NCBI GenBank assembly: GCA_963701295.1
Contig: OY969585.1
Coordinates: 2,368,001 to 2,432,000 of the forward strand
Direction: 5' to 3'
Source of the DNA: Ignavibacteriota bacterium
GTDB taxonomy: Bacteria > Bacteroidota > Ignavibacteria > UBA10030
DNA length: 64,000 nt
The notes below the pieces were generated by a model. It searched no databases and was not told the DNA's origin. It saw only the letters and a program-made list of their open reading frames with translations. Shown piece after piece: positions 13,167 to 55,738 of this stretch (its first letter is position 1; every line of letters begins with the position of its first letter). The translations under genes and the position numbers were made by a program.

Positions 13167-13295
13167 GGGGGTAAGTTGATATCAATCCCCCGATGATATC
13201 AAAGGCTATTTTTCAGTAGCATTACTGTGTTGGCGCTCGGTGATTTTTTACCCCCTCCCCCTTGACCCTGACATTTAAGCGTCGGGTTTTTTATT
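13167..13295 (+). ncRNA. Putative cloverleaf RNA plus terminator, copy 1
   Basis: Four stems with compensatory changes relative to 55472-55600. Confidence 0.5.
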
Positions 13296-13407
13296 CGCTA
13301 TTGGAAAGTAGATATTGTAGGTTTTAGTTAGATGTATTGGGTTTTGGGGACTTGTGGGAGTGGTCACTCAATGTATCAATCCTTTTTGTTCCCATTGTTA
13401 TTAATGT

Positions 13408-13433
13408 GGCAGCTTAGCCGCTATCCGTTAGGC
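13408..13433 (+). repeat. attC right half
   Basis: GGCAGCTTAG..GTTAGGC. Confidence 0.75.
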
Positions 13434-13470: not shown

Positions 13471-13989
13471 ATGAAAATTACAGGTAAGGTTGTCGCCCTT
13501 ATAGTCGGTGCGTCATTGGCTATTTCAATCATCATAGATTACTCAATTATACAACATCAGTTACCTTGGCTACACAGGATACTGGCTATAGAGGTTATCA
13601 TCACACATTGGGCGGGAGGAGACATAACAATACCACGACTCTCGCTACTTCCTCTTTTGGCTATTCCTTCAATCGTAATGGTTCTTATGTTTGTTCCCTA
13701 CACCTCTCTCCACAATCGTGAATCTTGGAGAGCGTTCGGAGTCAAACTCAAAACTATATTTCGCACTTGCTTTTGGGTTCTTGTTCTTTTAATCGTTGGC
13801 GAATTAATCTTCCTTTTTGCTAAGAAGTATTTGCTTGATGCAATAGGGCAGCTCCCAAAAATATTGTCGGTCGGACTTAAATTGTATTCATTTGATTTTC
13901 GATTTCTTTCTATCACCTTTACACCGGCAGGTATCATTGGAATGCTTGTCGGGATGTGGATATGGTATCGGACAGGCATCAAGAAATAA
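13471..13989 (+). CDS. Hypothetical membrane protein (cassette)
   Basis: 4 TM; bounded by GTTAGGCGGCATA/TATGCCACCTAAC. Confidence 0.75.
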   Translation: MKITGKVVALIVGASLAISIIIDYSIIQHQLPWLHRILAIEVIITHWAGGDITIPRLSLLPLLAIPSIVMVLMFVPYTSLHNRESWRAFGVKLKTIFRTCFWVLVLLIVGELIFLFAKKYLLDAIGQLPKILSVGLKLYSFDFRFLSITFTPAGIIGMLVGMWIWYRTGIKK

Positions 13990-14021: not shown

Positions 14022-14145
14022 ACCTAACCATTTTAAAAAGAAAAGAGTCAAGTACATAACATTCTCCCGATGCGTCCCACAGAGTGGGATTCAAGTGTTA
14101 ACAACTGAACATAACCGGCAAAGAGCGATGATATAAGCCGCAACT
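14022..14145 (-). mobile_element. attC R'' followed by an orphan IS110 end
   Basis: ACCTAAC+CATTTTAAAAAGAAAAGAGTCAAG...CTCCCGATGCG, as in the full elements. Confidence 0.8.
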
Positions 14146-28324: not shown

Positions 28325-29733
28325 CACTTTAAAAAGGAATAAGTCAAGAGAAAAGAGTACTCCCGAGGCATCAAGTGATCTATGATGCCGTGTTTGTTCT
28401 TTGAATTAGTTGTCACCGATACACGCCCGCCACAAGATACCGCACGGCGGGCAAGCCGCAGTGCCGATAGATTTATCGAGCGGACAGCCATACCGAAGCA
28501 ATGACGTCCAAACCATTTTTCGGATTAACCTCCAATTCATCAAAATACCGATGGTGGAAGCATGTCTCGTCCAAGCGAGAGGTTCCAGATATTTTCACGG
28601 CGCAACGCCTGACTTCCCAATCCAGCGGACGATGCTCTTACGGCATCAGTGAGGAAAGCGGGCTTGTCAGGCGCGGCCATTGCTGAGATTTCTGTCGGTT
28701 GATCGGCTGCCCTTTGAGACCATTATATGATGTTTTGTTCTTTAAGACATAGTAAACAATCTTTGCAAGCTCCTTCGCAAGAACAGCATAGGCGGTTGGC
28801 TCGTTAGATCGACGAGCTAATTTCTGAAAGAGACGTTTGTATTCAGGATAATACTGAACAGCATGGACAGCGGCATCAGAGAAGGCGATTTTGAGATACT
28901 TATTGCCGTCTTTGCTGGAACGGTGGTGCACGGAACGATTGGGGTTATCAGCCGCAGGGACAAGTCGGCAGTACGAGACAAATCTCTTATCAGAGTCGAA
29001 GCGTTCGATACCGTCGATCTCAAGATACACCGTGAAGGCTGAGAGCTTGCCGATCCCTGGGATGTGCAGGAGACGTTGAATATCGTCATTGGGGATCAGG
29101 ATCGGATGGAGAGATTTTTCCAGAGCGAGGATCTGAGAGGTGAACATATCGCGAGTATGTTCCAGCACAGCAGTCTGGAAGCGATAGGGATCATGGACAG
29201 AGCCGTTAAATTTGGCGTGAATGCTGTAGAGACGCAGCAGACAGGCAGAGCGTTGCTGAACGAGCCGTAAGCGAATGCGCATGGTATCTCGTAAGCCGCG
29301 AAGATCGCGGCTGATTTTATGAGCTTGGGGAATGAGTCCCTGCCGTAAGAGGATAGCGAGAGTTTGCGAATCAACTTTATCGGTCTTAACTTTAGCATAG
29401 CTGATGGCTTTGAGATATTTTGCGTGAGCAAGGACGAGATCGATGCCGTGGTCTTCGAGTAAATCGTTGAGCCAGTACCACCCGGTGGTAGACTCGACGA
29501 CAGCCTGATGGGAACCAGGCAAGGAATGGAAGTAATCGAGAACCACCTCGTTGCTATTCTCGACGCGTTGTTGTTTGATGACAGCACCGGTGTCATCGAC
29601 AGTGGTGATATAACTATTATCAGAGTGCAAATCGATACCTGAGTAATACATGGGAATCTCCTATTGTTGATGATGAATGTTTAATTCTTCAAGCTAAACA
29701 TACAAAATCGGGAGGTTCCTTTTTGGTAATATC
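28325..29733 (-). mobile_element. IS110/IS1111-family attC-targeting element, copy 1
   Basis: Subterminal IRs AAAAAGGAA/TTCCTTTTT; ~310-nt non-coding region downstream of tnp. Confidence 0.92.
28638..29651 (-). CDS. IS110-family recombinase (putative catalytic Ser to Pro)
   Basis: GIDLH, VVEST, KTDKVD, IPGIG. Confidence 0.95.
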   Translation of the reverse strand: MYYSGIDLHSDNSYITTVDDTGAVIKQQRVENSNEVVLDYFHSLPGSHQAVVESTTGWYWLNDLLEDHGIDLVLAHAKYLKAISYAKVKTDKVDSQTLAILLRQGLIPQAHKISRDLRGLRDTMRIRLRLVQQRSACLLRLYSIHAKFNGSVHDPYRFQTAVLEHTRDMFTSQILALEKSLHPILIPNDDIQRLLHIPGIGKLSAFTVYLEIDGIERFDSDKRFVSYCRLVPAADNPNRSVHHRSSKDGNKYLKIAFSDAAVHAVQYYPEYKRLFQKLARRSNEPTAYAVLAKELAKIVYYVLKNKTSYNGLKGQPINRQKSQQWPRLTSPLSSLMP

Positions 29734-40632: not shown

Positions 40633-42024
40633 CATTTTAAAAAGGAAAGAGTCAAGTAAATAGTAATCTCCCGATGCGTCCCGCAGCAGCGGGATGCGGA
40701 GTTCTTTGAGAGTGATGACGACCGAACACGGCCGGCAGACAGCGATGAGAGAAGCCGCATTATCTATCGAGCAGAACGCCACGACCAGGCAATGACGTCC
40801 AAACCATTTTTCGGATTAACCTCCAATTCATCAAAATACCGATGGTGGAAGCATGTCTCGTCCAAGCGAGAGGTTCCAGATATTTTCACGGCGCAACGCC
40901 TGACTTCCCAATCCAGCGGACGATGCTCTTACGGCATCAGTGAGGAAAGCGGGCTTGTCAGGCGCGGCCATTGCTGAGATTTCTGTCGGTTGATCGGCTG
41001 CCCTTTGAGACCATTATATGATGTTTTGTTCTTTAAGACATAGTAAACAATCTTTGCAAGCTCCTTCGCAAGAACAGCATAGGCGGTTGGCTCGTTAGAT
41101 CGACGAGCTAATTTCTGAAAGAGACGTTTGTATTCAGGATAATACTGAACAGCATGGACAGCGGCATCAGAGAAGGCGATTTTGAGATACTTATTGCCGT
41201 CTTTGCTGGAACGGTGGTGCACGGAACGATTGGGGTTATCAGCCGCAGGGACAAGTCGGCAGTACGAGACAAATCTCTTATCAGAGTCGAAGCGTTCGAT
41301 ACCGTCGATCTCAAGATACACCGTGAAGGCTGAGAGCTTGCCGATCCCTGGGATGTGCAGGAGACGTTGAATATCGTCATTGGGGATCAGGATCGGATGG
41401 AGAGATTTTTCCAGAGCGAGGATCTGAGAGGTGAACATATCGCGAGTATGTTCCAGCACAGCAGTCTGGAAGCGATAGGGATCATGGACAGAGCCGTTAA
41501 ATTTGGCGTGAATGCTGTAGAGACGCAGCAGACAGGCAGAGCGTTGCTGAACGAGCCGTAAGCGAATGCGCATGGTATCTCGTAAGCCGCGAAGATCGCG
41601 GCTGATTTTATGAGCTTGGGGAATGAGTCCCTGCCGTAAGAGGATAGCGAGAGTTTGCGAATCAACTTTATCGGTCTTAACTTTAGCATAGCTGATGGCT
41701 TTGAGATATTTTGCGTGAGCAAGGACGAGATCGATGCCGTGGTCTTCGAGTAAATCGTTGAGCCAGTACCACCCGGTGGTAGACTCGACGACAGCCTGAT
41801 GGGAACCAGGCAAGGAATGGAAGTAATCGAGAACCACCTCGTTGCTATTCTCGACGCGTTGTTGTTTGATGACAGCACCGGTGTCATCGACAGTGGTGAT
41901 ATAACTATTATCAGAGTGCAAATCGATACCTGAGTAATACATGGGAATCTCCTATTGTTGATGATGAATGTTTAATTCTTCAAGCTAAACATACAAAATC
42001 GGGAGGTTCCTTTTTGGTAATATC
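40633..42024 (-). mobile_element. IS110/IS1111 attC-targeting element, copy 2
   Basis: Same ends and insertion point as copy 1. Confidence 0.92.
40929..41942 (-). CDS. IS110-family recombinase (identical protein to copy 1)
   Basis: Same 337-aa sequence. Confidence 0.95.
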   Translation of the reverse strand: MYYSGIDLHSDNSYITTVDDTGAVIKQQRVENSNEVVLDYFHSLPGSHQAVVESTTGWYWLNDLLEDHGIDLVLAHAKYLKAISYAKVKTDKVDSQTLAILLRQGLIPQAHKISRDLRGLRDTMRIRLRLVQQRSACLLRLYSIHAKFNGSVHDPYRFQTAVLEHTRDMFTSQILALEKSLHPILIPNDDIQRLLHIPGIGKLSAFTVYLEIDGIERFDSDKRFVSYCRLVPAADNPNRSVHHRSSKDGNKYLKIAFSDAAVHAVQYYPEYKRLFQKLARRSNEPTAYAVLAKELAKIVYYVLKNKTSYNGLKGQPINRQKSQQWPRLTSPLSSLMP

Positions 42025-45049: not shown

Positions 45050-45216
45050 GCAATGCCGTCCAAACCAGTTTACGGATTTACATTCACTCATTGAAGAAAC
45101 GATGGTGAAAGCGTATCTCGTCGAGCGAGATGTTCCAGATATTACCACGGCACAGCGCACTCTCTTCCCAATCCAGCGAACGATCCCGACGCAGTCGGGA
45201 TCAGTTAGGAAAGCGG
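45050..45216 (-). ncRNA. Predicted bridge/seek RNA of IS110 copy 3
   Basis: Four guide-like segments match the target and donor junctions. Confidence 0.65.
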
Positions 45217-46206
45217 GCTTGAGAGGCGCGGCCACTGCTGAGATTTATGCCGGCTGATCGGCTGACCTTTGAGACCTTTATATATTGTTTTGTTTTTTAA
45301 GACATAGTAAACAATCTTCGCAAGTTCTTTGGCAACGACGGTTCGCGCAGTCGCCTCATTGGAGCGACGAGCTAATTTCTGGAATAAGCGTTTGTATTCC
45401 GGATAGTACTGAATAGCATGAACAGCGGCATCGGAGAAGGCGATTTTGAGATACTTATTGCCGTCTTTGCTGGAGCGATGGTGCACAGAGCGATTGGAGT
45501 TATCGGCAGCAGGGACGAGTCGGCAGTAAGAGACAAACTTTTTATCGGAGTCGAATCGTTCAATGCCGTCGATTTCAAGATACACCGTGAATGCGGTGAG
45601 CTTGCCGATACCTGGAATGTGCAAGAGCCGTTGAATATCGTCGTTGGGAATCAGCACAGGATGGAGAGATTTTTCCAGCGAGAGGATCTGAGCAGTAAAA
45701 GTGTCTCTGGTATGTTGCAAGACAGCAAGTTGAAAACGATACGGATCCGGAACAGAGCCGTTAAATTTGGTCTGAATACTGTAGAGACGCAGAAGACTGG
45801 CAGTTCGTTGCTGAACGAGCCGTAGACGAATACGCATGGTATCGCGCAGGCCGCGTAGTTCTCGGCTGATTTTGTGAGCCCGTGGAATGAGTCCCTGTCG
45901 TAAGAGAAGAGCAAGAGTTTGCGAATCGACTTTATCTGTTTTAACTTTAGCATAACTGATGGCTTTGAGATATTTGGCGTGAGCAAGGACAAGCTCGATG
46001 CCGTGATCGCTGAGAAGATCGTTGAGCCAGTACCATCCTGTGGTAGACTCAACGACTGCGTGATGAGGACCGGGCAGAGAGTGGAAGTAATCAAGAACAC
46101 GTTCATTGTTATTCTCGACACGTTGTCGCTTGATGACAGCACCAGTGTCATCAACAGTGGTGATAAAACAATTATCAGAATGCAAATCGATACCTGAGTA
46201 ATACAT
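45205..46206 (-). CDS. IS110-family recombinase
   Basis: DEDD motifs; LVPAADNS keeps the Ser. Confidence 0.95.
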   Translation of the reverse strand: MYYSGIDLHSDNCFITTVDDTGAVIKRQRVENNNERVLDYFHSLPGPHHAVVESTTGWYWLNDLLSDHGIELVLAHAKYLKAISYAKVKTDKVDSQTLALLLRQGLIPRAHKISRELRGLRDTMRIRLRLVQQRTASLLRLYSIQTKFNGSVPDPYRFQLAVLQHTRDTFTAQILSLEKSLHPVLIPNDDIQRLLHIPGIGKLTAFTVYLEIDGIERFDSDKKFVSYCRLVPAADNSNRSVHHRSSKDGNKYLKIAFSDAAVHAIQYYPEYKRLFQKLARRSNEATARTVVAKELAKIVYYVLKNKTIYKGLKGQPISRHKSQQWPRLSSPLS

Positions 46207-46464
46207 GGGAATCTCCTTAGATTGTGGATGTTGGTGACCTAGAGAATTATCAATGTACATAATCGGGAGATTCCTTTTTGGTAATATCCAGCAACTCAAG
46301 CTGACGGAATGAGCGTAAGTAAGTACAAAATTGAAAGAACTAGCATGAACTTGTTTCGTTTAGTATATTTTGAAAGTTATCAGTGTCACAGCTTAACTGC
46401 CATCCGTTAGGCAGCGCAGCGTGCAGTAAGTGCTAATTGAAATAGCAAAAGGAATAAAACGCTT

Positions 46465-55402: not shown

Positions 55403-55471
55403 TCACGATTGATATGATTTCTTCTCTGCTGTTCAGACTGCGATTGAAAGTGCAGTGGATAATTTATGGAT

Positions 55472-55600
55472 AGGGGGATAAGTTGATACCCTCCTCAATG
55501 AATGTCGATGGCTGTCTCAAAAAAGCACCACTGTATGTGTGCCCGGTGGTTGTTTGTCTCTCCCCATTAACCCTGACGTTTATGCGTTGGGGTTTTTTGT
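55472..55600 (+). ncRNA. Putative cloverleaf RNA plus terminator, copy 2
   Basis: Homologous to 13167-13295 with covariation. Confidence 0.5.
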
Positions 55601-55705
55601 TTGTTATTAAAAAACAAATATCGTAGATTTTGAGTAAATATATTGGCTTTGACGAATTCGGAGAGGGGTCGCTCAATGTGTTTGTCCTTTTTGTTCCCAT
55701 AGTTT

Positions 55706-55738
55706 TCAGTGCCGCAGCTTAGCGCCCGTCTGTTAGGC
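55706..55738 (+). repeat. attC right half
   Basis: CGCAGCTTAG..GTTAGGC. Confidence 0.8.

Follow-up and report, generated by a model that had tools for sequence, protein, structure and literature searches.

The window analysed here, a 64,000-nt stretch (G000:C1:2368001-2432000) of a 3.64-Mb single-contig genome, is a section of a long gene-cassette array with attC sites of ~130-250 bp. A regular-expression search returned 134 attC right halves, a count that includes some false calls and some missed left halves. Several genes in the cassette region (window 7417-60653) encode large secreted enzymes, glycoside hydrolases or proteases, that bear a type IX secretion tail, and at 700-1100 aa they are unusually long for an attC array. 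Three IS110-family copies of IS1111-type layout lie on the minus strand (28638-29651, 40929-41942 and 45205-46299). All three have inserted at the R'' end of an attC site; they carry AAAAAGG/CCTTTTT as sub-terminal repeats and have a long non-coding stretch 3' of the transposase. Remnants of the same family occur near 14025, 17040 and 19519, where decayed right ends are joined to attC halves.

Two copies of a composite module

The module under study occurs twice in the window, both times on the + strand. Copy 1 opens with a cloverleaf of a closing stem and three arms (13167..13255), recognized from sequence, predicted fold and family alignment. The closing stem (13167-13175/13247-13255) encloses arm A with its C-rich loop (13176-13202), arm B, whose length varies in the family (13205-13220), and arm C (13221-13244), which carries a UUGGCGC loop at ~13228-13237. 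An unpaired C-rich linker and an intrinsic-terminator-like hairpin with a T-tract follow (13256..13292; terminator 13266-13292). Next comes a predicted sigma-70-type promoter, TCGCTA-17-TAGGTT (13295..13323); across the family the hexamers and the 17-bp spacing are kept and the spacer letters vary. A generic promoter scan did not list this site. The leader, with a predicted stem-loop (13330..13395), ends in CCTTTTTGTTCCCAT and runs into an attC right half (13396..13433; L' 13409-13418, R' 13427-13433) that is identical to the right halves of intact attC sites and has no left half. The first cassette-type ORF beyond it (13471..13989, + strand, 172 aa, no Pfam or NCBIfam family) is likely transcribed from the module's promoter.

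Copy 2 (55474-55738) has the same layout. Its cloverleaf (55474..55560) has a mutated loop C and four broken pairs, and is followed by the linker and terminator-like hairpin (55561..55598), a predicted promoter, TTGTTA-17-TAGATT (55601..55629), scoring 8.6 and thus above the 95th percentile of random 80-nt windows, and the leader with its attC right half (55636..55738; L' 55714-55723, R' 55732-55738). Directly 5' of it we found the 3'-end remnant of an island non-specific endonuclease gene (55416..55468, + strand). The local alignment behind this call stops at the nuclease stop codon and outscores 100 of 100 shuffles.

The original prediction had described a repeated cloverleaf RNA-like element with covariation, fused to an attC right half. 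Every stem that it described was found in place in both copies, and the two are homologous from the closing stem to R', with CCTTTTTGTTCCCAT ending at 13395 before the attC half. Between the copies, the cloverleaves are 63% identical, the terminators 84%, the promoter stretches 65%, the leaders 76% and the attC halves 71%; the 100-nt flanks reach only 37% and 45%. Across the 30 cloverleaf pairs, 17 are the same in both copies, six have a one-sided change and two a compensatory one; four are broken in copy 2 alone and one in both. Against dinucleotide shuffles, the fold of copy 1 with its terminator reached a z of -4.1 and that of copy 2 a z of -2.0. The predicted fold of copy 2 is a cloverleaf no more, and its covariance-model score is 97 bits, where the genome's other full copies score 118-134. 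Because its fold is weaker and its third loop mutated, we regard copy 2 as decaying.

We then found that the portion from promoter to attC half is separable from the cloverleaf. Fusion to an attC right half holds for both window copies, but only these two of the six full copies in the genome run into such a half, so homologues do not always precede one. At nine other loci promoter and leader recur without a full cloverleaf; in three of these a reduced arm C precedes them. The half site itself cannot fold as attC: long-range L'-R' pairing probability on the bottom strand is 0.01-0.03 in the window copies (0.01 in copy 1) versus 0.13-0.77 in five intact attC sites. On these three grounds the attC fusion is secondary. 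Across 31 loci, 19 have a sigma-70-like promoter with a 17-bp spacer 3' of the terminator, of two kinds: one (family consensus TTGCTA-17-TAGATT) leads to the leader and attC half, and the other (TTGACA-17-TA..AT/CT) leads in most cases to a second small RNA. The leader is conserved in six of 15 other genomes of the genus. It has its own stem-loop (window 13330-13395; L071-L085), in which a 12-bp palindrome GAGTR-NN-YRCTC varies. We also noted that L041, L043, L046, L053, L056, L062, L064, L065 and G000:2217600 are one orthologous locus after a HAD-family gene, at which the genes 3' of the promoter-leader-attC half differ by genome even though the half site cannot fold as attC.

The claim that the module is non-coding and heads cassette sub-arrays was supported, with a promoter-like site of fixed 17-bp spacing 3' of the terminator; the fused unit would likely give cassette sub-arrays a terminator and a promoter. 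We interpret the window copies as island relics joined to a separate promoter-leader-attC-half unit.

Cloverleaf family, spread and island setting

A covariance model at E <=0.001 matched 13 of 86 family genomes. On inspection these comprised seven with full copies, one diverged, two truncated, and three with the second RNA or unclear matches; the weak matches in G007 and G094 are the second RNA and that in G005 is ambiguous. The core model matched seven of 151 genomes sampled across the order, all seven within this family, and pattern scans added ten genome loci (one without a model match) and 20 metagenome loci. In these searches nearly all cloverleaves came from one genus. Among sequencing runs, none from RNA was listed as a holder of the element, a result that counts neither for nor against. 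The genome that holds the window (G000) has six full cloverleaf-terminator copies, a degenerate seventh and two partial copies by the covariance model.

In an alignment of 27 distinct full copies, fitted to the model and composed of copies related to one another, 97.3% of cells are paired and 14 of 41 pairs show double-sided changes (6/30 in the cloverleaf, 8/11 in the terminator). None of 500 shuffles reached this result, and slid controls were 35-50% paired. The covariation first claimed between the two window copies is mostly decay of copy 2 (two of 30 pairs compensatory), but pairing is kept in the wider family. G-U cells exceed A-C cells across family pairs (134 versus 10), which indicates the + strand and agrees with an RNA. 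Conservation is concentrated in loop A (UCCC), the linker (UCCCC) and loop C (UGUUGGCGC). Loop C is retained in copies that have lost or rebuilt other arms, and truncated copies keep arm C with arm A rebuilt. Rfam gave no family match for the window at the gathering cut-off, for copy 1 at E <=10 or for 12 loci at E <=1, in line with the prediction of an unannotated structured RNA-like element. We conclude that this is very probably a folded RNA element separate from attC.

Three pattern scans of viral contigs gave one, zero and nine matches, none of them a cloverleaf. Two distinct contigs show the loop hairpin, as a terminator ahead of an integrase gene, and the remainder look like chance. In these phage contigs (L021:3001-3021 and L100:1501-1516) a hairpin with a TGTTGGCGCG loop forms a terminator opposite the 5' end of an integrase-like gene, which suggests cis-antisense control of the integrase by the phage hairpins. 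Since unrelated phage terminators share this loop motif, it may be a generic one.

The cloverleaf is carried in the heads of this genus's integrative islands. At two loci, tRNA-Gly, integrase, nuclease, cloverleaf, terminator, promoter and second RNA follow one another in that order, and AbiEi/AbiEii, DUF6577, methylase or restriction genes come next in several loci. At six of 31 loci the cloverleaf lies 4-12 nt past the end of an intact lipoprotein Endonuclease_NS gene, and at nine more it is preceded by a 3' remnant of one, including window copy 2 and excluding copy 1; six of these nine are one orthologous locus. A different Endonuclease_NS gene lies upstream at L052 and L057, and a ComEC-type MBL-domain gene at L059 and L066 (E 9e-28, below the cut-off). 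The link to nucleases is not obligate, as a cloverleaf follows three of five intact close nuclease genes, and both nuclease activity and export are predictions from Pfam and N-terminal sequence. Across loci we found no consistent promoter 5' of the cloverleaf; TTGAAA-17-TAAATT is well placed 5' of three nuclease-linked copies.

Complementarity to comM and a second RNA

The exported nucleases suggested anti-transformation islands, and we therefore compared six seeds with the starts of competence genes. The match that emerged was to comM (TIGR00368), where a 9-bp hairpin covers part of the Shine-Dalgarno (SD) sequence and the start codon. Its loop, GCGCCAA, is the complement of UUGGCGC and is predicted to be unpaired at 0.9. 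Compared against 2565 gene starts, loop C gave comM a rank of 0.001, and comM is one of three starts of 2565 with a 6-nt loop C complement in a hairpin loop. This match is post hoc, with six genes and six seeds screened and a rough p of ~0.04-0.1. The starts of comEA, dprA and radC lack a conserved site for the seeds, and the match in comEC falls within conserved codons. For comEA, comEC and dprA, targeting by anti-SD pairing was discarded, their starts being without SD-like sequence.

The comM site is conserved in one part of the genus. Seven of seven group-A genomes, with comM genes that are 78-95% identical, share the same 19 nt ahead of the comM ATG; by comparison, invariance holds at 7/181 fourfold (silent) sites in group-A comM and at 0/41 positions further upstream. 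At seven other starts in the loci retrieved, 2-9 of 11 positions are invariant, the high values apparently where coding sequence lies upstream. As group A was first defined by the comM start sequence, we checked the grouping with trees: it corresponds to one side of the independent ComEC and DprA trees (99/98 and 98/97; midpoint root), with G009 added, a genome in which comM was not found. The cloverleaf is present in six of eight group-A and two of eight group-B genomes, counts to which we attach no p-value since related genomes are not independent, and the two cloverleaf-bearing group-B genomes have a comM without the site. In G008 (86% complete) the invariant comM site is present and no cloverleaf was found, and in G013 the site is accompanied by a decayed remnant only, so something else may hold the comM site fixed. 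Outside the genus, two of 25 comM starts rank <=0.06 for loop C, a set from which two unparsable loci and one duplicate were left out. About half of these 25 starts (L171-L197) have a run of at least four G, not GGAGG, that is complementary to the C-rich loops.

Thermodynamic scans were less specific. Whole-molecule co-folding, in which kissing loops are not modelled, gave comM no special place for either RNA (ranks 1879, 572 and 457 of 2565, the first for the cloverleaf), and a 7-nt kiss could form only if arm C opened three weak pairs at its tip. An intergenic scan for better antisense partners of the comM start yielded no clear candidate, with cloverleaf copies at positions 17-23 among 4082 prefiltered windows. 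Of the chaperones sought, Hfq was not found in the genome, nor was ProQ/FinO (PF04352) in this 99% complete assembly, a search whose control matched in one of 14 genomes.

Downstream of many cloverleaf copies, and under its own promoter, lies a second unannotated RNA of 75 nt. It has a hairpin with a UCUCCCC loop, a AGCCUCCCU linker (invariant anti-SD) and a terminator with a UCUGGUAGUG loop. Copies were located at G000:C1 3016944-3017032(-), 3641229-3641319(+), 3620256-3620343(-), 546667-546758(-) and 3509984-3510072(-), and at L218-L247. Double-sided changes affect 14 of its 19 pairs (18 sequences), and Rfam holds no match. It occurs in all 16 genomes of the genus (3-19 hits each) and in 43 of 86 family genomes, at core loci and as island copies, the latter before AbiE genes. 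We take the core loci to follow an acyl-CoA-synthetase-like gene and to adjoin a citrate-synthase-like one. One core copy (L253, L255, L258, L259 and G000:3510030) is preceded by GGAAC...CGTT, presumably an ECF-sigma-type promoter, and differs in this from the TTGACA promoter of other copies.

The terminator loop of this RNA ranks comM at <=0.06 in seven of eight group-B genomes versus three of 25 genomes outside the genus. In G015, its complement ACTACCA stands at the starts of comEC (L128), dprA (L148) and comM (L161) and not of comEA. This three-of-four pattern at competence starts is found in one of 16 genomes, G015, whose 4.0 Mb hold 29 ACTACCA motifs within 14 nt of any ATG. The best-scoring second-RNA copy there has a changed loop, and the citrate-synthase-type copy fits. 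The motif in G015 resembles a regulon box that arose in one lineage. As sequence matches, with the multi-gene pattern in one genome, these results support the idea that such loops may address competence genes in the genus.

Competing readings and wider meaning

Our leading reading, held tentatively and with a little less than even confidence, is that the cloverleaf RNA represses comM by loop-loop pairing. The RNA would be made by read-through from the upstream gene or from a promoter overlapping its stop codon; its UUGGCGC loop would kiss the GCGCCAA loop of comM through a YUNR U-turn, in the manner of CopA/CopT. Pairing at the start would repress, and not activate, this DNA-uptake helicase, and RNA and exported nucleases together may shield the island from curing by transformation. 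Copy 1 retains loop C and could still act in this way, and copy 2, with loop C lost, would be left with a role as terminator and promoter only.

We weighed this against two readings in which comM plays little part. The cloverleaf may instead be a cis-acting 3'-end structure that stabilizes or ends the upstream mRNA and, with the terminator and promoter, insulates the next unit, with no target in trans. That it begins 4-20 nt past a stop codon in many loci, has no consistent promoter, nearly always precedes a terminator and promoter, and shows compensatory change mostly in the terminator (8/11 pairs) all fit such a role. We nevertheless consider it somewhat unlikely, because the cloverleaf outlasts decay of the upstream gene, its loops hold their sequence where stems vary or are lost, and the invariant comM loop is left unexplained. 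Alternatively, the cloverleaf could be a multicopy sibling RNA whose C-rich loop A and linker act as anti-SD sequences and block many mRNAs, with comM one target or a chance match. The model here is LhrC of Listeria, which likewise exists in several copies and places UCCC in a loop as well as in the unpaired linker that precedes the terminator (PMC4132741). The cloverleaf shares multiple copies (six or more in the genome) and redundant, conserved unpaired UCCC motifs, and SD sequences stand at 35% of scored starts versus a 7% background, and at 48% of cassette starts. Against this, the best-ranked targets predicted for the C-rich seeds do not fall into a functional group and truncated copies keep arm C while rebuilding arm A; moreover, the cloverleaf differs from LhrC in its extra arms, island location, lack of any shared regulator site seen and lack of an Rfam match. 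We judge this reading improbable.

Two further possibilities fared worse, the first of them raised by the original prediction. In the C4/CI system, complementary target sites flank the RNA in the same transcript, and the RNA is processed by RNase P from a precursor. The cloverleaf resembles C4/CI of P1, P7 and P4 as a multi-armed small RNA in mobile elements (PMC3632133), and differs in lacking an Rfam match, flanking cis targets, a conserved 3' CCA after the closing stem in the family alignment and, among the neighbours seen, genes of icd/ant/kil type. The three-armed shape and mobile-element context would suit either such an immunity RNA or a type I antitoxin with its target in an adjacent transcript, as when loop A pairs with the downstream leader, and loop A is complementary over 8-10 nt to that leader in six loci. 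These six are one orthologous lineage, however, both window copies match over 5 nt only, and the leader stretch pairs in cis. Loop C has a cis target in one of 29 loci at p 0.01, Rfam gives no C4/isrK match, and no conserved small toxin-like ORF was found on either strand (12-75 aa, SD-like site, ~400 nt, 31 loci), which makes this reading very improbable. Weaker still is the case for a DNA element, be it an IS1111-type end or MITE inserting in attC, a tRNA remnant or an attI-like site. IS1111-attC elements combine a DEDD transposase with a downstream non-coding region and sub-terminal inverted repeats (PMC11187229). In favour, the IS110-family copies of the window insert at attC and share a 9-nt end motif with the leader, and at one orthologous locus different genes follow the attC half in different genomes. 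But local IS homology is absent beyond short chance words (best E 0.15 among the matches listed; three copies), and none of the modules examined has an identified IS110 transposase next to it. Neither ARAGORN nor Rfam places a tRNA at the copies, the window's sole Rfam tRNA being at 1304-1376. The integron-type integrase and its adjoining attI candidate lie ~1.1 Mb from the window (G000:3566-3567k), and the stretch there contains repeats of GTTAGGC and lacks the module. The half site, for its part, is unable to fold as attC. We regard the DNA-element reading as largely refuted, with scarcely any probability left to it.

Returning to repression of comM, precedents for its parts exist in other systems. 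RocRp, on Legionella conjugative elements, silences comM and other genes (10.1101/623074). Like RocR/RocRp, the cloverleaf is a small RNA of mobile elements predicted to act on the comM start region, and element-borne and chromosomal copies appear to coexist, most clearly for the second RNA. The differences are that a ProQ/FinO chaperone of RocC type was not found in this genome, that among the gene starts that could be placed, which leaves comF aside, the cloverleaf site is conserved at comM and not at comEA, comEC or radC, and that the cloverleaf is larger, with a four-way junction; a sequence relation is not expected. As for the RocR-type combination of core and element copies, the cloverleaf is patchy, with none intact in G008 and G013. 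As in CopA/CopT, the proposed contact would join hairpin loops through a central GGC/GCC, with a YUNR motif (UUGG) in one of the two (PMC10798244, PMC4485353); here, by contrast, the partner would lie in trans and complementarity would span 7-9 nt instead of a full antisense. We place the cloverleaf in none of the RocRp, CopA/CopT and LhrC families. Element-borne DNases also have a precedent: IdeA, SxnA and Dns lower transformation, and such DNases and comM inactivation are common (PMC12378983). The exported non-specific nuclease genes predicted in our island heads are alike in kind, and differ in adjoining a structured RNA.

A broader proposal, which we think unlikely, is that the islands might constitute an anti-transformation kit of an exported nuclease and two small RNAs, whose U-turn loops, UUGGCG and UGGUAG, would each fit the comM hairpin of one host branch. 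One RNA would mimic a host competence regulator, the other would answer a host escape allele, and decayed heads would be recycled as terminator-promoter units for cassette arrays. If true, this would amount to an RNA-level arms race over comM. Literature searches returned no report of competence control in this phylum, and among the papers listed none mentions Ignavibacteria. Were repression of comM true, element-borne RNA silencing of DNA uptake would have arisen more than once, here through an RNA structurally unrelated to RocRp, in a distant phylum, with loop-loop recognition of comM independent of ProQ or Hfq. The module also shows how long cassette arrays far from intI could acquire internal promoters from island debris.
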